Of a DNA stretch of 64,000 nt, positions 45,088 to 64,000 are shown one piece after another (the stretch's first letter is position 1; every line of letters begins with the position of its first letter). The notes below the pieces were generated by a model. That model had not been told where the DNA came from. It worked only from the letters and a program-made list of their open reading frames with translations, and made no database searches. Position numbers and translations under genes: made by a program. Source of the DNA: Lophium mytilinum (taxonomy: Eukaryota); assembly GCA_010093605.1 (NCBI GenBank), contig MU004191.1, positions 1,844,816 to 1,908,815 of the forward strand, in the 5' to 3' direction.

Positions 45088-46059
45088 NNNNNNNNNNNNN
45101 NNNNNNNNNNNNNNNNNNNNNNNNNNNNNNNNNNNNNNNNNNNNNNNNNNNNNNNNNNNNNNNNNNNNNNNNNNNNNNNNNNNNNNNNNNNNNNNNNNNN
45201 NNNNNNNNNNNNNNNNNNNNNNNNNNNNNNNNNNNNNNNNNNNNNNNNNNNNNNNNNNNNNNNNNNNNNNNNNNNNNNNNNNNNNNNNNNNNNNNNNNNN
45301 NNNNNNNNNNNNNNNNNNNNNNNNNNNNNNNNNNNNNNNNNNNNNNNNNNNNNNNNNNNGCATTAAATAAAATATATAAAGTAAAGGGTAGAATATAGTT
45401 TATATAACGTTTATAGATAAAGTAATTAATAGGGCTACCGTAGAAAGCCTTCCTGCTAGGGCTCTTCCCTAGCAACCTTAACCGAGTAGCAGTATCTATA
45501 AGGGGTGTTAAAACGGGTTAGGCAGAGTAAGCCCTATAATAAGAATATTAACAAATCCTTATTTTTAACTAATTATACTCCCTAACTACTTTCTACTTTT
45601 TAGCTCTATATTCTAAACTATTATCCCCCTTACTACTATACCTAGTAGTTAGTATAGAACGCCCTTAAAAGTACTAGAATAAAGAAGAGTAAAAAGCAGC
45701 TAAATTATATTTAATAGTAGATTTAAACCAACGCAAGAGAGATAAAAAGAAGAGGGCTATAGACTAAATAGCTGCAGTAGAAGAGGCTAGTAAGCCTACT
45801 TCTACTTCTATTCTAGATCCGTTTCTAATTATCTTTAAAAACCCTAGAGGTCTTTCTAGTATAAACATTAGGGCCCCTTATCCTACCCACCCTGCGCCTA
45901 CGCCCTTTTAACAACTAATTATACCTTAGAAGCCTTTAGAGAAAACTATTATATAACTTATAATTAGTATATCTTTTATAATCTTCTAGTATTTATAGTT
46001 AGGTTCTAATAAACTTAAGTAGAACCCGTCTTAATAAAAGAATTATTACCTTCTACCTC

Positions 46060-46360: not shown

Positions 46361-47929
46361 AAGTTAAAAGCGGCCTAATATATACCTAAAATTTAAAGTA
46401 ATATAGAATTAATAGAAGCTATAGAGTAAAATTAGAGTAATAGTAGTAAGTATACTATTATATAGACTATTAAGGGAGCAGCAGTTAAAGAAAAAGAAGA
46501 AGCGGCTAAAGAAAGCGAAGTAAATAAAGAAGTAGCCTAAGTAGATAAAGAAGTAGAAGAGGCAGTATTAGAGTTGCTATTACCTATATCTTCCGCGTTA
46601 TCTTCTTATATACCTGCGTTACTACCACCTCTAAATACTAGAGAGGTATTACCCTCTCTATTACTACCTTCTAGTGTAGGGACACCTTAGTAAGCCGCAA
46701 ATAATAATAATAGAGCTCCGGGCTAAGTTCTACCCGCTATACGCTATCTCTATAAAGTGTTTCTTAAACCTATAGCTATACTATATATATATACAGGCGT
46801 ATATACTATTCTTACCCTCTAGAATACTCTATAGATAGCTATAATACTACACGCAAGTTTACGCGCTTAATAAACTATAGCAGCTCCTACTCCTATATAA
46901 CTAGAACTAATAATATAACGCTAAATACTAGCCCTTATTACTATATTACTACTTTATATACTTATGTAAATAACTAATAAAGAGATTATAGTAGAATTAT
47001 TCTTAGCGCAATAAAATAAGGCCGTAGAAGTGCTCTCTAGAATAGACGCTACGGAATAAATAGATAAGAAGGAAATGCTAGCTAATATAAGTTAGTTTAT
47101 ACAACTAGCGTATAATAATAGTTAGGTTTAGATAGAGTAGTACGCTGCCTTATTATCTCTCCGCCTAACGCTAGTAACTAAGGTTATAGAAGAGGAATTT
47201 ACCTAATTTAAGAATAAGGTAGAAGCAGGTGCAGATATAGATAAGGTATTAAATAATAGAGTTAAAGAGGGTAGAGAAGGTATATATACGCAAGGATAGT
47301 AAGATACTATAGATAAATTACCGGGTTTACTTAATAAAGTTACGCTAGAGAATTAAGGCAGTAGGGTAGATAATATAGCCTTAAATAGTAAAGGCAATAG
47401 TAAGATTATAGATAAAGTTATAGATAAGATAGACCCTAATAGGTAAGTATTATAAGCCCTATAGTTTATATAAAGCTAATATACGTAGGTATAATAATCT
47501 ATTAGTAAATACTCTATATATAGTAANNNNNNNNNNTTAGAAGTCTAGTATACTTACTATATATCTTAACTCTTTCTATTTAGATAATATAGTAGCTAAT
47601 ATTATAATATAGCAAGTAACTATATAATAGTTCCTTAAAGCAGATCCCTTAGCTAAGTTACTAGCTTTCTTCTAGCTTAGAATCTTTCCTTCTAATAAGA
47701 GCCTATTACAGCTAATACAGCCTTCTATTTAATAAGCCAACTAGAGCTATTATAGAGAGAGGATAATCCTAACAACTTTAATAATATCCTATAGAAATTA
47801 ATATTAAGCAGAGAAACTAGTAATATAGAAACTCTAAGGCTTAGTTTTATAAGGTCTAAAGCTAGCTTTATAGCGAATAAAGAGATTAAAATCCGGCAAG
47901 TATATAATATTAATAGCATTATTATTAGC

Positions 47930-53449: not shown

Positions 53450-55560
53450 TAAGGTAGTAGTAGATTACCGGGGCTTACTATATATACTATATTATATAGA
53501 AAGGCTTTCTTAGTAGGGCTTTAATTACAGATAAGGTTAGTATTAGAAAGATATTTTTAATAGCTACCCTTATTAGATATATAAGCAATTTCTCTTTAAA
53601 GGGTATTAATAGAAAGCCTTTCTACTACCCCCCTAATAGTTTCTCTTAGCATCTACTAATTTAATTATAGCTTATTACTAAGCGCTAGCGCAAAGTTATA
53701 GATAAGAAAGACCCCGGGCTAGTAAAGCCCTTTTTTTTTCTTATGCCTCCCGTTTTAGTATACTAAATAGTAAATAAACTTATAAAGTTTAGTTCTAAAC
53801 TTAAGCTCTATATCTATTTATTAAAGGGCTAAGTTACTTTCTATAGCGCTATATTTCTACATAATACCTTAACTAGAAACTATTCCTTATTTAATACTAA
53901 AAATAAGGTAAATGCTAAGAGCATTGTAATCGCCAGCTATTAGGTAATAGCTAGTCGGCACGGTCCCTAGCCCGCATTAAAGTAGTATAGCAATAATAAT
54001 CTTACTAAGCTAAAGAACTAGGTTAAATATCGCCTAAGCTCTACCTAGCCCGGTTTCTTAAGTAGCTATTTTAACGTCTAATTTATAGATAAGTGCTAGC
54101 TTATTAAAAGTAACTAAGTAAACCTCCACCTAACCGCGTTATAGCTTTACTTAGACTTTACTATACTCTATAGTAGGACCCTACTATATATAGGTATTAC
54201 TAATATGCCTACTTATATATCTTTTATAGAACTAAGAGATAAGTATTTATAATTCTGCACATACCGCTTAAAACCTAGTAAAGCTAAGTTTATTCCAGGT
54301 ACTAATAATCCGTTTAAGCTTCCTAATAACTATTTAGGTGTAATTTTCTAGTATACACGCAAGGCTTTTAAAAATTTTATTCTACCTTTATTTAACCTGT
54401 AAGTTATTATATAAAGGGCCCTAGTAAAAAGGCTTCTAGCTAGGGCCCTTATCTCTTCTCTTATTTACTTTAATTTTTTAATATTTCTCTAGGATTATAT
54501 AGGGGCTTTATTTACGCTTAATTTTTAGTAAGTATATAATTACTCGCTTATACCCTTCTATATACCTAAATAATTCTACTAATCCTGCCACCTAAATTAG
54601 AGGATTACTTCCGCGGTTAGTTACGCGAGTAATTAAGCTATAGCCTATAAAACTAGGCTATATTATCTATACTAATAAATTACTAAGCTACCTTAAGTTA
54701 TTAATAGTTTCTACTAAGAACTGTGTAGGCTAGCGCACCTATATATTTAATATATGCTCTATATATGCTCTTAACCTTATAAGTACTGCGCTATTTTTAG
54801 TCTACTCTAAGCGCGCTATAATAGCATATCCGTAAGAGAAGGTCTTAGATTTAAAGGGTAATAAGATTAAGAACGGCCCAAAAATCATCCCTCTTAAGAA
54901 TAATAGCGGTTACTAGTTAAAGGAAATAGACGTTTTGCAAGGCATAATAAAGTAAATTACCCGGAATAAGAACGTCTAAACTAACCCTAATTAGAAAGAC
55001 TTTAAAGCAAAGTCCGCACCCTTTTATTATATTATCGCTCTTTTTATCCGTAATGCCCCTAAAGTAGCTACACTACTATACTATTTAGCTAATAACGTTA
55101 TTAAGCGTATAGAGAAGGTTATTATTTAGACTAACTACCTAAATAAGTAAATAATTCTTGCTAAGATTATTAACTATTATAAAATAGATGCTTATATACT
55201 AGCCTTTAATCTCTCTACTACTAACCGGGATAACTTTATCTTAGTGTTTAACAACCCCGACTCTAAAGTAAAGATTCTTATTACTAGTTACTAGGCTAAT
55301 AGAGCTAGGCTTAATCTATAGTCTACTTATTATAATATATATCTTTTTAACCCTGCAGGCTCTATTTAGATTAAGAAGCAGGTAATAGCGCGTTTCTATA
55401 GAATTAGCTAGAAGTTTACTATTATAGTAACCGCGTTCTTTATCTAGGACACATTTAATGCCTTTACTCTCTCGCGCTAGGTGTAGATAGCGCTTTCCGG
55501 TCTTACTACTGCGTTAAACACTAACTAGATTAAGGTAGAGGGGACCTCTAAGGAAAAGCT
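53450..55560 (+). pseudogene. RIP-inactivated SNF2-family helicase/ATPase (core domains; full gene likely longer)
   Basis: Observed SRALITDKVSIRKI de-RIPs to GGALIADEVGIGKT (~53512-53553). Then motif Ia (MPPVLVxQ), IVIASY..RHGP, DKC*>DECQ (54088), SRTL>SGTP (54172), APK, EKVII, RARLNL*>GAGLNLQ (55301) and QVIARFYRIS*>RIGQ (55379). Motifs are in correct order and differ only by G>A/C>T. Confidence 0.85.
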
Positions 55561-58500
55561 AACCCTAGATAGCTAGTATGCGTAGATAACCTATAATAAT
55601 AAGAGTATTGCACCCCGCCTTATTATAGGCAAAATAGATATTTTAAATATGCCGGTAGAATTATATATTAAGCGCTTTAACTCCCTATAAGATATTCTTA
55701 TATTTCTAATAACCCTTATGCAAGGTAATATAACTTTTTAGTCTAGTAGGTTTAGTAATAAGTTCTAAGAAAAATAAGCGTATAAATTTACTAAATTAGA
55801 ATTAGAAGAAGAGTAGAAGAAGGGTGTAAATAGAGCGCCTAAGAAACCGCGTATTAATAAGCTAGGTTTAAGGCTTAAGTATTATCCTGTAAGTAGTAAG
55901 TTCGCCCTTATAGGTTCTAGCGGGAAGGCTTTCTACTAGGGCCCTACTTACCTTTTTATACTTTGCTAATCCGTGTTTTATAGTAAAAGCTACCCTAAAG
56001 CTAAAGCTAAAGACACTAGAGTAATAAAATAGTAAAGCTTTAAAGTAGAAGCGCAAAGCTAGTACTATACTAGCGGCTGCTATTAAGAAGTATAAGCCTA
56101 ACCCTAAGTCTACTATTATAGTTAAAGACTTAGATTCTACTAAATCTAATATGCCTACCCCTATAAAGAGCACTACTAGAAAGGCTTATAGCCCTTTTAT
56201 CTATTAATATAGGCCGGAGCGTAACCCTTTATATTAAGTCCCCGCTGTTTTTAGTAATATAGACAGCAATAACTCTTTTAGTAGGCTAAATAGTAATAAC
56301 TCTAAAGGTAAAAAGTATAAGAATAATACTTTATTCCTTGCAAAGTATATAGGTAAGAATTTATTCTAGGGCCTTTTTAGAAAGCCTTTCTACTAGGGCC
56401 CTTTAGCATCGCCTATTATACTGCTTAAGTGCTAACTATTATAATAGCTTCTACTTCCGCCCATTAACCTACTTTAACTCTACCTTCTAGCCCTCTTAGT
56501 ACCTTTAATAGACGCCTTATTAGGACCTCTTCTATAGACTCTATTCTATTACCTAATATATAGAAGAAGAGGTAGCGTAGAGTTTCTACTATCTCCTTAT
56601 AGAATTCTATAGATAATCTAGTTTTTTATTTACTACTAAAAGCTAACATTAATATAGATAATAACTAGACTAAGAGTAATAAGTAGAATAAGAAGAATAT
56701 TAAAACCCCCGACGTTAATATAGAGAACGTCCCGTCTAAGACTAATAAGTAAAATGGGGGGTATCTTAATAATTACCCGGATTTTACTACTACGCTATCT
56801 AAAGTTGCCTTTAAGCGTAATAGCAACTACAGTAGTAACTTAAATAACCCGCCGGAATTTATAGAAGAGGCCTTGTAGCTAACCTTAAAAACTATATCCT
56901 CTAGTAATACTAATAAGGGTTAGAAGCGCTAAGGCGCAAAAAAGAAGCCTACTATAAAGAAGGATAAAGTAGCTAAGAAAGACCCTATATCTAAATTCCT
57001 TATATATTGTCCGTACAAGTATATAATAAAGAAAGAGATTACTAAGTAGCGCCCTTAGCGCGAAAGAAAGGCTACTAAGAAGAAAGCTACTGCGTAGAAG
57101 TCTATAAACTCTACTAGACTAAAAATAGACCTACGCAGGCGGAAGAATAATCCTAATATTAGCTAACCGCCCGCGGTATTAGGTATAGATACTAACCCTA
57201 ATAGTAAAGAGAATAGTAGTAAATTAGAGGGGACTAGTATAGTGCTGGAGAAGTCTAATAGTAAGGTATAACTAGTAGGGTTTTTATAGAAAGGCTTTCT
57301 ATAGGGGCCCTTACCCTACTTTTTAAATTTAGTTTAGTATCTCTTAATATCTTTTTTTTTTTCTTTCTAACAGTTCTAATTAGGACTACTTTTCTTGCTA
57401 TTAGTTTGCACCTACTTACTTAGTACTGCTAACTTTTTACTATCCTAATTTCTTACTTACGTTCTATCCTCTACCCCCTAATAGTTAGTACTACTCCGCA
57501 GTAGTAGTATACTTTATACCCTTAAAATCTCCTAGTTTATATTTAGCCTCTAGATAGCGGCTTACTTAACTATAGAATATAGCGTAATATTTACTACTAT
57601 AACTATGCCTTGCGTATCTTATGCATAATATAATATTTATTTTATTTATCTATATTATAGAGGGCGGTCTCATCCACCGTAGTTTATGTAGTTAGAAAGG
57701 GTAATTACATTCTAATGCTGCTCTATTATATCTATACTATTAGCATGTACTTTCTATCTTTTTTATAGTAAAGAATCTGCTATTATATACCCTGTAATTT
57801 AACCCTTTTTACTAATATTAGTTATATAGCTAGGCTAAGTTCTCTCTATAGACTCTATCTATTAATACACTATATATAACTTTATTCTACCTATAGTTCC
57901 CTAAAGCGTATATTATTATATAATGCCTAAACTAACTAGAAGAAGAATTATTTATATATATTATTATTAAGTCTTTAGCGTACTAGGCGGCGGAAGGTAA
58001 TTTAGGTATTACAGTTATACTTTCTAGTTTATTAGCAATATATTTAGACCTGCTTATTATTAGTAAGAATAGTAATTCTTAAAGGGTTATAGTCTTACCG
58101 TTTATTACTTTTAATATAACTTTCCTTCTTCTTATAGTTATAAATAGTCTCTATATTATAAATAGAACTGCTCTTTTATTCTAGTATTTTCCTTTACTTC
58201 TATTCTTATAGCCATCTTAATAAGCGCTTTAGCCGTATAAGCTTCCTTCTTATAATAGAATCTAGAGTAGTATTTATAACCTCGCGCCTAGATAGAGTAT
58301 TAGGCGTAGTAAGAGAAGAAGCTAACTACTCTATTAGGATATATATATTGGGTAGACGTAGATATATCTACCCCTGCTAAATATTATCCTTAGCGTTTAG
58401 AGTTACTATGCTGCTGCGCGTTAACCTTAGTATACCGGGCTATATTTTATATACTTTAGCCTAGTTTAGAGTTGCAGCCGTCTCTATATTAGGTTAGGCC

Positions 58501-60668
58501 GCTTCTTATCTTATAAATATCCACCAGAACGCTCTAGAAAGAATATATATAGTATACTAATTAAAACTTACATATAGTATTATACGTAGGCTGCTACTAT
58601 ACTATAAGGGGTAGGTAGTAGTTAGAAAAAGGTTTAATGCGCTAGTTTCTATTAATCTTAGTATATTACGTGCTAACCTCTTATATTATATCTATACTTA
58701 TAATTAACCTTTAGAGGTTAACTTTATATACTATATATAAATAGCAGCTCTAAGAGTTTTATTTTATTACTATACTATACGTATATTTTATCTTAGGCGG
58801 AACTAGTAGGTTCCTATAATATATAGTTTATATAACTATACCCTGCGTTGCTTTAGCGCCCGCCTAATTTACTCTTCCTCTCTTTTCTTACTTTTTTAGC
58901 TTATTTCTCTCTACACTATAGCTGCAGGTAAACTAACAGCTAGAACTAGCATAGGAGAGACTTTTAATTATATTTAAGGCACTTTAGAGAAATAGTTTAA
59001 CGGTATATAAAGTTTTAAAGCTAGTAGGCTATGGGAATACCTATATAACTAACTTAGAAGAGTAGTATACTAAGAATAGCACCGCCATAATAGGTATACT
59101 AATAGGCTCGGGTACTATTACTTAGAACCCTCTTCTTAACCCTAATATACCTAGTAATACTACAGATCTTACCGCATAAAATGCTAGAGAGGAGTTCTTA
59201 TTATTTATTTCTAAAATAACTTCTAAGCTAGCTAATATAGACTAACCCTATACAACTAAACCGCTTACCGCGGAGGATACTACTAACCCTACCTACATTT
59301 ATGCCTAGAGAGAAGCACTTCTTGCAACTATCTAGAATTAAAATAGAGGTTCCCTTTTTAGTAATAGCCTAGGCATGCCTACTAATACTACTCTTAATAT
59401 ATAGCCTACTATAACTAAGTCTTAAACTCTCTATAACTATGCTAACCCTCTATTCTAAGCTACTAGAGATAGCGCCCTACCTTCTAAGTCTAATATTAAT
59501 ATTAAGCCTAAACTAGCTAATAAAGTTAATATAAAGATTAAGCCTAGTATTAAGATTAAGCCCGGCCTTATAAGCAGCCTGGATACTATAACTTTTTTAA
59601 GGATAATTTTAAGGATAAGAAGCTTCTACGCTTATAGATTAATATAGAAGAGAAGAAGGTAAGGGCTATATAAATAAGGTTTAAGGCTATAGCTAGAGAG
59701 CGGAAGCGGTAGGGCCTAATCTACTTCTAAATTTAAACCTTAAATAGAAGTAGTAGCGCTTTAACCTATTTCTATCTCTACGCGCTCATTAGTAAACACC
59801 TAACTCTTTATTTAGCGCTGCTAGGCCCTTACTATTCCCTAACCTATCTTCTCCTTTAATAGTAACGCGTCCCTACTTTTCTAGAACTATACTCTAGCCC
59901 TCTACGCTATCTATATGGAAATCGTCTAATAGGCTTTACTCTTTTACTTTACCTTACTTTTATTTCCTTCTTTAATAGCTTTATCTCTACTCTTCTACTA
60001 TTAGTCTTATCTTTTTCTACTATAGCGGAGCCTCTAGACCTAACCCCTAGTAATAGTACTAGTTTACCCTTTACTACTATAGTAAAACCTAAAGATTTAT
60101 CTTCTATTACTACTACTACCGCGTTGCTAACTTGCAAGCTCTAAAATTATAGATATTGCAGGAAGAAAGCTACTCTAAGGTATAGTTACTATGCTAGCAT
60201 TATCTACTACAATATAGATTATTAAAAGGCTAACTAGAAATTATCTAATACACCGCCTTCTTACATAAAGGTTATTACACCATAATAAGACTTCTATACT
60301 TTAGCTTAAATTTACTAATAGATAGTAAAGAGCGTAAAGTTTAGTAGATTATCTAAGGGGTAGAAATTAAAATAGGCTCTAGCTCTATTATATAACTATA
60401 AGCTATAATATACTTTACCTCTTATAAACTTAGCCCGCTATATATAAATATAGAGTCTCTCCTGCCTAAGCGCTAAAGAATAACTTCTAGTAGAGTAGCT
60501 GCAGCTACCCTAGCTTATATAGATTAAACTAGCACTCTACCTTAGCCTTCTTAGGCTAGCCTTTAACCTTATATATATACTAGCATAGGTAGTAATAATT
60601 ATTCTTATTCTTCCTTTATACTAAGCTTAATTACTACGCCGCTTTCTAGCTTTAAGAAGAAAAGAAAG

Positions 60669-61804
60669 ATAGAGGTTGTAGCTCCTCTTAGTAGTTAGAA
60701 CTCTACCCTACTATTAATAGATTAGATATATAGAGGCTCTATTCTAGGTACCCTAAGCATGCTATAAAACCTTCTTAGTATTAATAAGTTTAAGAAGTAG
60801 TATAAAGCCGCCGTTACCGCCGCTAGAGCCTAAGCCTAATCTACTCTCTAACCTATTCCTATCTCTATATGCTTATTAGTAAATACCTAGCTCTTTATCT
60901 AGCGCTGCTAGGCCCTTACTATCCCCTAACCTATCTTCTTATTTAATAGCAACACCTTTCTACTCTTCTAGAACTATACTCTAACCCTCTATACTGCCGG
61001 CTTTCCCTACTCTCTTACTACTACTAGCCCCTTTACCTTTAAGAAAGAAGCTAAAGAAGCCGCCTCTACTCTTAGCCTTACCCTCCTCTTCTCTCTTAAA
61101 GCCTTAGGTATAGTCTCTACCCCTAGTAAAACTAAAAAATGTACTCTAACTCTAACTTTTACTACTACTACCCCTAAGAAACCCTAGAAAAACTTTACTA
61201 GTATTCTTATAGAATTCTACTAAGCCTCTAAAATTTCTATTCTAACCTTTACTAAGTTTAAAACCGGCACCTACTTCTCTACTAAGCTATCGCTAGCCTT
61301 ATACCGCCCGGAGGACGCCCTCTTTAGTAGCCGCGCTATACTCTACCTATTAAAGAAAGCGGCTTATATAGCTATAGTAAGAGAGGTAGTACTCTAGCTA
61401 TATATAGGGATAGCTACCCGCTATATATAAGCCCGTGTTTAGAAAGAAGTAGTAGAAGATAGTAGAGGGTTCTAAAAACGCTGCAGTGTAGCTGCCGGGT
61501 AGTATAGTAGCGCAGGTGCTAGCACTAGCAAGCAAGCTAGGGCTACTATAGCTGGAGTATTAGTAGGCGGCGCTAAGTACGCTAGTGCCGGGGCTATCTA
61601 TAGTAAGTAGTTTATTCCCGGGGAGTAGAGTAGGTAGAGAGAATAGAGTAGTAGCAACGGCAAGGTATATAGTTAGAAAGAAGGCGGTAAGGAAAAAGTA
61701 TGCGCAGTTAATAGGAATAGAGTTAGAAGAAGTATTAGAGAGGAGGAAGGGGGTGTTAGAAAAGGTATTAGAGAAGGGGAAAAGAGAGGTAGAGATAAGG
61801 GAGG
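60669..61804 (+). pseudogene. RIP-inactivated protein with three double-stranded-RNA-binding domains, copy 1
   Basis: De-RIP reading: NTQLFIQRCQALAIPQPIFSF...PFTSKKEAKEAAS..GL; ENFTSILMEF.Q....PTFTEF...FGG....PSKKAA.AAVAREVV.WL; AAQVLALASKLGL.QPEY...ARHVVGKKAAREKCAQL. Confidence 0.75.
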
Positions 61805-62953
61805 NNNNNNNNNNTATAAAGATTAAGCCTAGTATTAAGATTAAGCCCGGCCTTATAAGTAGCCTAGATACTATAAGTTTTTTAAGAATAATTCTAAGAA
61901 TAAGAAGCTTCTGCGCTTGCGGATTAATATAGAAGAGAAGAAGGCAAGAGCTATATAAATAAGGTTTAAGGCTATAGCTAGAGAGTAGAAGTAGTAGGGC
62001 CTAATCTACTTTTAAATTTAAACCTTAGATAGGAGTAGTAGCGCTCTAATCTATCCCTATCTCTACGCGCTTATTAGCAAATACCTAACTCTTTATCTAG
62101 CGCTACTAGGCCCTCGCTATCTCCTAACCTATTTTCTTCTTTAATAGCAACGCGTTTCTACTCTTCTAGAACTATACTCTAGCTCTCTACGCCGCCTATG
62201 CAGAAATTATCTAATAGGCTTTACTCTTTTACTTTACCTTACTCTTATTTTCTTCTTTAATAGCTTTATCTCTACTCTTCTACTATTAGTCTTATCTTCT
62301 TCTACTATAGTAGAGCCTCTAGACTTAACTTCTAGTAATAGTACTAGTTTACCCTTTACTACTATAGTAAAATCTAAAGATTTATCTTCTATTACTACTA
62401 CTACTGCGTTACTAACTTATAAGCCCTAAAATTATAGATATTATAGAAAGAAAGCTACTCTAAGATATAGTTACTGCGCCAGCATTATCTACTATAATGC
62501 GGATTATTAAAAGGCTAACTAGAAATTATTTAATACGCCGCCTTCTTACATAAAGGTTATTGCACTATAATAAGACTTCTATACTTTAGCTTAAATTTAC
62601 TAATAGATAGCGAAGAGTGTAAAGTTTAGCAGATTATCTAAGGGGTAGAAATTAAAACGGGCTCTAGCTCTATTATGTAACTATAAGCTATAATATACTT
62701 TACCTCTTATAAACTTAGCCCGCTACGCATAAATATAGAGTTTCTTCTATCTAAGCACTAAAGAATAACTTCTAGTAGAGTAGCTGCAGCTACCCTAGCT
62801 TATATAGATTAAACTAGCACCCTACCTTAGCCTTTTTAGGCTAGCCTTTAACCTTATATATATACTAGCGTAGGCAGTAATAATTATTCTTATTCTTTCT
62901 TTATACTAAGCTTAATTACTATACTACTTTCTAGCTTTAAGAAGAAAAGAAAG

Positions 62954-64000
62954 ATAAAGGTTGCAGCTCCTCTTAGCAGTTAGAACTCTACCCCGCTATT
63001 AATAGATTAGACACGTAGAGGCTCTATTCTAGGTGCCCTAAGCGTGCTATAAAACCTTCTTAGTATTAATAAGTTTAAGAAGTAGTATAAAGCTACTATT
63101 ACCGCCGCTAGAGCCTAAGCCTAATCTACTCTCTAACCTATTTCTATCTCTATACACTTATTAGTAAATACCTAGCTCTTTATCTAGCGCTGCTAGGCCC
63201 TTACTATCCTCTAACCTATCTTCTTATTTAATGGCAATACCTCCCTACCCTTTTAAAACTGCACTCTAACTCTCTACGCCGCTAGCTTTCTCTACTTTCT
63301 TACTACTACTAGCCCCTTTACCTCTAAGAAAGAAGCTAAAGAAGCCGCCTCTACTTTTAGCCTTACCCTTCTCTCCTCTCTTAAAGCCTTAGGTATAGTC
63401 TCCACCCCTAGTAAAACTAAAAAATATACTCTAACCCTAACTTCTACTACTACTACCTCTAAGAAACCCTAGAAAAACTTTACTAGTATTCTTATAGAAT
63501 TCTACTAAGCCTCTAAAATTTCTATTCTAACCTTTACTAAGTTTAAAGCTAGCACCTACTTCTCTACTAAGCTATTACTAGCCTTACACCGCCTAGAGGA
63601 CGCCCTCTTTAGCGGCCGCGCTATACTCTACCTATTAAAGAAAGCGGCTTATATAGCTATAGTAAGGAAGATAGTACTCTAGCTATATATAGAGATAGCT
63701 ACCTACTATATATAAGCCCGCGTCTATAAAGAAGTAGTAGAAAATAGTAGAGAGTTCTAAGAATACTATAGTATAGCTACTAGGCAGTATAGCAGCGCAG
63801 GTGCTAGCGCTAGCAAGCAAGCTAGGGCTACTGCAGCTAGAGTATTAGTAGGCGGCGCTAAGTGCGCTAGCGCCGGGGCTATCTATAGTAAGTAGTTTAT
63901 TCCCGGGGAGTAGAGTAGGTAGAGAGAATAGGGTAGTAGTAGCAGTAAGATATATAGTTAGAAAGAAGGCGGTAAGAAAGAAGTATGCGCAGTTAATAGT
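62954..64000 (+). pseudogene. RIP-inactivated triple-dsRBD protein, copy 2 (cut by window end)
   Basis: Same reading as copy 1 at +2285. It retains some ancestral bases lost in copy 1 (aatggcaa, aactgcact, agcggccgc). Confidence 0.75.

Follow-up and report, generated by a model that had tools for sequence, protein, structure and literature searches.

Two probable RIP-killed duplicates of a fungal gene with three double-stranded RNA-binding domains in Lophium mytilinum

Two mutated copies of one gene

In a 64,000-nucleotide (nt) stretch of the genome of the fungus Lophium mytilinum (GenBank assembly GCA_010093605.1, contig MU004191.1, positions 1,844,816 to 1,908,815; hereafter the window), we found two copies of a segment that carries a gene for a protein with three double-stranded RNA-binding domains (dsRBDs). 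Both copies bear the marks that repeat-induced point mutation (RIP) leaves, and an unmutated copy of the gene is present in DNA contigs of the same organism. We consider it probable (approximately 85%) that the two copies are non-functional duplicates, killed by RIP, of a conserved host gene with three dsRBDs, the parent copy of which survives.

The window has a normal GC content up to approximately 42 kb and is AT-rich (22–40% GC) from there to its end. Copy A of the segment (59530–61804, forward strand) consists of an upstream part followed by the gene, and copy B (61815–64000, forward strand) is cut by the end of the window. Between them lies a 10-N scaffold gap (61805–61814), which hides the true length and content of the junction. 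The two copies align over 2185 positions without internal indels; they agree at 1994 of these and differ by 188 transitions and 3 transversions. The resulting identity of 91.3% agrees with the duplicated unit reported in a preliminary description of this DNA. No further copy of the segment was found in the rest of the 64-kb window.

When a read-through translation of the frame (stops as X) was used in a protein search, only two of the 1612 candidates had E ≤ 10. The first, P0004, is a 464-amino-acid hypothetical protein from L. mytilinum (E = 2.4e-57, 62% identity, 96% of the query), and the second, P0005, is a protein from Mytilinidion resinicola (E = 1.1e-34); both are labeled as DRBM domain-containing in UniRef. 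The direction of the damage can be read against P0004. Copy A is identical to it at 269 of 446 aligned residues, and for 153 of the 177 differences, C>T or G>A changes in some codon of the P0004 residue are sufficient. Of the same 177 differences, only 5 fit the reverse direction, and 1 and 9 fit two transversion controls. Copy B is identical at 239 of 411 residues; 156 of its differences are explained by RIP and 16 are not. The frame is interrupted by 26 in-frame stops in copy A and by 24 in copy B, which bears out the earlier description of both copies as RIP-killed. The copies themselves do nothing.

The base composition gives the same picture. The TA/AT index is 2.41 in both units and the (CA+TG)/(AC+GT) index is 0.25 and 0.27, compared with 0.73 and 1.18, respectively, in the GC-normal part of the window (1–42000). 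Thresholds for these RIP indices are approximately 0.89 for TA/AT and 1.03 for (CA+TG)/(AC+GT). RIP is thus indicated by the near-exclusive transitions between the copies, by the C>T and G>A direction relative to an unmutated homolog, and by the dinucleotide indices. As for a strong CpA preference of the mutated cytosines, the next base among the 109 C/T differences between copies A and B is A in 38, C in 28, G in 23, and T in 20; CpA sites may already be saturated in both copies. The GC-maximizing consensus proposed as a check in the preliminary description could be built, but 25 stops are left in it and its identity to P0004 is 265 of 416 residues. The merge restores little because nearly all of the damage is common to both copies.

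P0004 residues 1–456 match copy A colinearly and without an intron (tblastn). The dead frame of copy A is in two parts on the forward strand: 60450–61394, which is intron-less and corresponds to residues 1–316 with 19 stops (tblastn E = 1.4e-114; codon analysis), and 61408–61803, which corresponds to residues 322–456 with 7 stops (tblastn; codon analysis). The last 8 codons fall in the scaffold gap, and the sequence 3′ of the gene is out of view. The two parts are separated by the site of a 2-nt loss in a TA run (61395–61407, forward strand), where 13 nt stand for the 5 codons between L316 and G322, Ala320 being represented by a single base at 61404. Copy B has the same layout on the forward strand. 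Positions 62735–63679 correspond to residues 1–316 with 19 stops (tblastn; codon analysis), 63680–63698 has 19 nt for 7 codons (L316–L324) with the loss at 63689, and 63699–64000, cut by the end of the window, corresponds to residues 324–423 with 5 stops (tblastn match 63699–63995). Since this 2-nt loss is common to both copies, it is older than their split, as had been proposed when the duplication was first described. An attempt to order RIP and the loss in time gave no order; the TA run is the RIPed form, and the unmutated Arg-Ala codons could equally have been a CG run, which is equally slippage-prone.

The frame contains three alpha-beta-beta-beta-alpha modules, for which the limits predicted by AlphaFold2 for P0004 were carried to the window via codon-alignment blocks. 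The first (60879–61106, forward strand; P0004 residues 145–220) has helices at 145–156 and 199–220, strands at 163–169, 174–183, and 186–191, and the helix-2 motif SKKEAKEAA. The second (61194–61405, forward strand; residues 250–320) has helices at 250–260 and 303–320, strands at 267–273 and 276–282, and the motif SKKAARAAAAR. The third (61504–61767, forward strand; residues 355–442) has helices at 355–365 and 413–442, strands at 372–375, 385–391, and 403–411, and the motif GKKAAREECAR. The three-module reading of the preliminary description is therefore correct, and the motifs quoted there are the RIP-worn forms of these three.

An extra 153-nt piece of the same gene lies 5′ of the full frame in each copy (repeat family D1). 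In copy A it is located at 59759–59911 (forward strand; tblastn E = 1.5e-10) and in copy B at 62044–62196 (forward strand; repeat search and tblastn). The piece corresponds to P0004 residues 136–183, namely, the first half of dsRBD 1, and 16 of its 17 residue differences are explained by RIP. We also considered a longer, older half-copy in this 5′ region, and rejected it. A transition-tolerant comparison of 59912–60449 with 60999–61804 gave a score of 116, against 95.5 for the reverse complement. Scores of that height were also reached by 3 of 60 other RIPed segments, such that the match is not significant and the 153-nt piece is the only solid one. In addition, one contig in each of two DNA runs (described below) joins 59740 to 59814 and omits 73 letters, which may represent a deletion in a variant copy or a cross-match of the 153-nt piece with the full gene.

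The surviving gene and its protein family

The two DNA runs, X1 and X2, are from one sample and contain 0.51 and 0.36 of the sampled words of the RIPed stretch, respectively; contigs were matched to the window at 80% likeness. In addition to the mutated sequences, each run has a contig (depth 160 and 169) on 60446–60515, 60971–61104, and 61285–61324. At the listed places, bases that are T or A in the window are replaced in this contig by C or G as T>C or A>G, apart from one T>G. A third data set, X3, has a matching 1298-nt contig in which 43 letters differ over these 244 positions. The changes tallied for it from window to contig are T>C (22), A>G (8), and T>G (1), such that 30 of 31 are T>C or A>G. 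The loose end of the X3 contig past 61324, when read by eye, gives GGRAVLHPS, which equals P0004 residues 294–302, whereas P0005 has two different residues there. An unmutated copy for P0004, or for a very similar protein, is thus retained in the organism, and the DNA most likely belongs to L. mytilinum or a very close relative. Destruction of the host gene by RIP, one of the possibilities raised in the preliminary description, is contradicted by this copy and by the intact public protein P0004. No RNA run containing the RIPed stretch was listed. The labeling of X3 as RNA is a guess (2 records matched; 23 of 30 bins have no depth, which has no bearing on the silence of the dead copies), and its contig is at most a weak hint of transcription of the intact gene.

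The surviving gene itself was examined for light RIP. At five sites, P0004 has what RIP would make of the state that the dead copies preserve, with outgroup support only for I239 and I241, and this was too weak for the proposal to be retained. At these two residues (window 61161–61169), both dead copies keep ACT (Thr) and P0005 has a run of Thr; the isoleucines may be a mild trace of C>T change in the gene that survived, a subject reportedly treated for histone H3 in PMC6710886. As for the start of the protein, P0004 residues 1–72 (window 60450–60665) have no counterpart in P0005, P0009, and P0010, all of which begin at an MEV or MDV aligned with P0004 residue 73. The AlphaFold2 predicted local distance difference test score (pLDDT) is below 50 over residues 1–72. 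The true start of P0004 may be M73, with the rest being a 5′ leader.

An exhaustive HMMER search with P0004 recovered 310 cluster representatives with E ≤ 1e-3, of which 143 had E ≤ 1e-10 and 19 had E ≤ 1e-30. From these we aligned 51 proteins: P0004, P0006, and 49 near full-length matches picked from 150 listed. Pfam dsrm is matched at E ≤ 0.01 by 45 of the 51 aligned members (best 3e-12), and 26 match Pfam Dicer_dimer, which has a related fold. With the cut-off of dsrm (PF00035) at 23 bits, P0005 scores above it (30.6) and P0004 below (19.2), the best stretch of the latter being residues 253–318. We looked up 20 members; the 16 that come with an organism name are without exception fungal, namely, Lepidopterella, Paraconiothyrium, Lojkania, a Phaeosphaeriaceae species, Bipolaris, Zopfia, Pleomassaria, Melanomma, Delitschia, Periconia, Lineolata, Microthyrium, Cladosporium, Diplodia, Westerdykella, and Piccolia. 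Most of the named genera we take to be Dothideomycetes, the class to which L. mytilinum (Mytilinidiales) belongs; Piccolia is placed in leotiomyceta incertae sedis. The annotation names found in the family are "hypothetical," "DRBM domain-containing," and "double-stranded RNA-binding protein." Based on these results, the parent family is a conserved, uncharacterized fungal host gene with three dsRBDs.

The fold was computed on the intact relative P0004 and not on the dead copies. Using the 51-row alignment, AlphaFold2 predicted the three modules at residues 145–220, 250–320, and 355–442 with a mean pLDDT of 75.6. The score is 90 or higher at 223 of the 464 residues, and the module blocks are mostly above 90. 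A Foldseek search of this model against PDB gave 11 matches at E ≤ 0.001, all of which are dsRBD proteins. The top matches are Loquacious-PB (8dfv_K, 1.7e-7) and TARBP2 (7zpk_C, 9.1e-7), followed by DRB4 (2n3f) and R2D2 (7v6c_B), to 5.3e-5. The identification of the gene as one for a three-dsRBD protein in the preliminary description is borne out by these modules and matches. The parent protein most likely binds double-stranded RNA.

Loquacious-PB, TARBP2, DRB4, and R2D2 are multi-dsRBD partners of Dicer in animals and plants, and P0004 resembles them in having dsRBD folds in a row, three in its case, with the KK-x-A motif kept in all three modules of the fungal protein. However, the sequence identity to these proteins is only 14–18%, and flexible linkers keep the whole-chain TM-scores low. 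We tentatively raise the possibility, conceivable rather than likely, that the parent family may be a so far undescribed filamentous-ascomycete counterpart of the Loquacious/TRBP/R2D2 Dicer partners. A literature search found no account of such a Dicer partner in filamentous fungi; this search was limited and its result is a lead rather than a claim of absence.

Arrangement and origin of the copies

Several observations count against the interpretation of the two copies as RIP-killed duplicates of a surviving parent gene. The raw copies have Pfam dsrm matches in none of the six frames of their read-through translations, the sole match being a chance one to Ribonuclease_P (E = 0.12). The HMMER check with PF00035 suggested in the preliminary description thus gave nothing on the copies and, among the intact proteins, matches for 45 of the 51 aligned members, with P0004 itself below the cut-off; the dsRBD identity comes from intact relatives. 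Furthermore, 24 of the 177 differences in copy A are not explained by RIP alone, and approximately 12 of these are common to both copies. The shared non-RIP differences imply that the common ancestor of the copies was close, but not identical, to the P0004 gene, which points to some divergence or to a duplication of somewhat greater age. The window may have been assembled from X1 and X2 themselves, so the intact contig is no independent confirmation. Lastly, the copies adjoin only via the scaffold gap, and this gap and the end of the window conceal where the duplicated segment stops on the right.

With these points taken into account, we still favor the duplication of a host gene followed by RIP, and the copies most likely arose by local duplication. 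A segment of at least 2.3 kb would have been copied into, or amplified within, the repeat-rich region. It contained the intron-less gene, several hundred bases of upstream sequence, and the stray 153-nt piece of the same gene, and the 2-nt loss goes back to before the two copies split. RIP would have recognized the repeated DNA in sexual cycles, and its C-to-T and G-to-A changes left 24–26 stops per copy and an AT-rich composition. The parent copy elsewhere in the genome stayed intact, most likely through selection against offspring in which it was damaged.

The arrangement of the copies in the assembly leaves room for another explanation. The window has three N runs, at 45088–45359 (272), 47527–47536 (10), and 61805–61814 (10), and because all of them are inside the AT-rich block, the assembly is unreliable in this compartment. 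The homology of copy B begins at the first base past the third of these runs. A diverged contig (46 of 324 letters differ from the window) covers 59382–59705 and so crosses the left edge of copy A at 59530, from which it follows that the duplicated segment reaches further to the left (at least to 59382) and that the gap conceals real sequence. The 2,285-bp unit of the preliminary description is therefore upheld as two real copies, whereas its period is fixed by the gap, such that both the unit length and a strict head-to-tail tandem are unproven. It is possible, if doubtful, that the tandem is a scaffolding artifact, with copies that are real but non-adjacent, or that derive from a longer collapsed array, and with a period that is non-biological. 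This would account for the position of the gap exactly at the junction, for the continuation of homology to the left of 59530, which is incompatible with a strict 2285-bp unit, and for the two other N runs in the same block. On the other hand, the copies were linked by the scaffolder, and a difference of 8.7% indicates distinct genomic copies rather than one copy assembled twice.

Transduplication, in which a DNA transposon or other mobile element captured and spread the gene and RIP killed the element-borne copies and spared the original, is in our view rather unlikely. It has a precedent in the same fungal class, namely, the capture of histone H3 by a hAT element in Pseudocercospora fijiensis (PMC6710886), and the location of the copies in a 22-kb AT-rich block would suit it, as would the extension of inter-copy homology to at least 59382 by the diverged contig. 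It would also suit the matched contig pieces, 201 in X1 and 260 in X2 (all four identity classes, up to 10 contigs per position), which amount to more sequence variants than expected from two copies. However, contig counts and summed contig depths are not copy numbers; at least two copies exist, perhaps a handful. Around the copies, we detected neither a transposase nor a terminal repeat nor any other feature of an element. The number of inverted repeats of 40 nt or longer in 55000–64000 is zero, a six-frame Pfam search of 57300–60449 gave one weak chance match only, and a protein search of 57901–59100 found nothing among 5749 candidates. Moreover, the copy spans upstream sequence and the whole frame, not the coding part alone.

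An origin of the first extra copy from reverse-transcribed mRNA, rather than by duplication at the DNA level, is improbable. The copies have no intron, and the verified upstream homology to the intact copy continues only approximately 21 nt past 60446, which could be within the transcript (the X3 contig ends 87 letters 5′ of 60446). However, the intact gene has no intron either, as the DNA contigs are colinear over the same span, and the absence of an intron is therefore uninformative. Any poly(A) tract would be expected at the 3′ end, which the gap conceals.

The preliminary description had further raised the possibility that the gene was anti-silencing cargo next to a hairpin-rich element. 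In the boldest form of this idea, a neighboring element with a Rep-like nickase and a SNF2-type helicase would have carried the gene to blunt RNA silencing before RIP killed all of it. dsRBD proteins can act as silencing suppressors, but we regard this idea as very improbable and unsupported by our results, as many fungi have the family as a conserved host gene, both copies are dead, no second helicase unit with which a repeated linkage could be seen was found in the 64-kb window, positions 59000–59375 between the helicase gene and the copies behave as a separate and more abundant repeat in terms of summed contig depth, and the neighbors are ordinary in the four environmental loci (L005, L007, L009, and L012 of 12), where 4 of 12 long open reading frames beside family members have Pfam matches, these being RRM, a PDR-type ABC transporter, and a Zn-cluster transcription factor in two pieces, with no SNF2 or Rep among them.

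Known cases and flanking sequence

Duplicates of host genes killed by RIP have been described in other fungi, and the locus reported here is a further instance that differs in the gene, the few copies, and the carrier, none having been found. In the closest precedent, from P. fijiensis, the histone H3 gene captured by hAT was amplified and all copies were RIPed save the original, which the authors attribute to purifying selection (Dhillon et al., 2019; PMC6710886). As in L. mytilinum, this involved a host gene of a Dothideomycete, with the extra copies in AT-rich blocks and killed by RIP and the original intact. In contrast, P. fijiensis has hundreds of copies and an identified carrier transposon according to the same text, compared with two assembled copies and no carrier found here. 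The genes are also different in kind, with a housekeeping histone in P. fijiensis and a lineage-restricted dsRBD protein in our case.

In Stagonospora nodorum, deRIP uncovered repeats of endogenous genes (Hane and Oliver, 2010; PMC3017866). The RIP-degraded repeats of that species likewise turned out to be duplicated host genes, recognizable only once RIP was allowed for; the difference is that the intact paralog made in silico reversal unnecessary here. A DNA methyltransferase gene of Zymoseptoria tritici was amplified and entirely RIPed, and its original was lost too (as summarized in PMC6710886). This case is similar in that a silencing-related host gene was amplified and then RIPed, but the original was lost in Z. 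tritici and its function is gone, whereas the original survives in L. mytilinum. L. mytilinum has been treated as a close relative of Cenococcum, and a bimodal age distribution has been noted for its repeats (PMC12910237).

The locus is a clean worked example of how RIP polices gene duplication, with the parent intact, the extra copies dead, and the direction of change readable, and in this respect it is not surprising. It is useful for annotation, as such AT-rich stretches can be assigned to parent genes. The unnamed three-dsRBD fungal family behind the locus is a more promising lead than the locus itself.

Two observations concern the sequence to the left of the copies. The summed contig depth in X1 is 650–890 over 59000–59375, compared with 278–367 over 59376–59563, and several diverged contigs are present. 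The part at 59000–59375, for which neither the six-frame Pfam search of 57300–60449 nor the protein search of 57901–59100 gave a match, looks like a separate, more abundant repeat that abuts the gene copies. Further left, 58050–58900 (forward strand, in the frame of 57301) is more open than any other frame of the flank, having 3–5 stops per 100 codons compared with 7–16 in the others. The protein search gave no match for it, and it could be another RIPed coding remnant.

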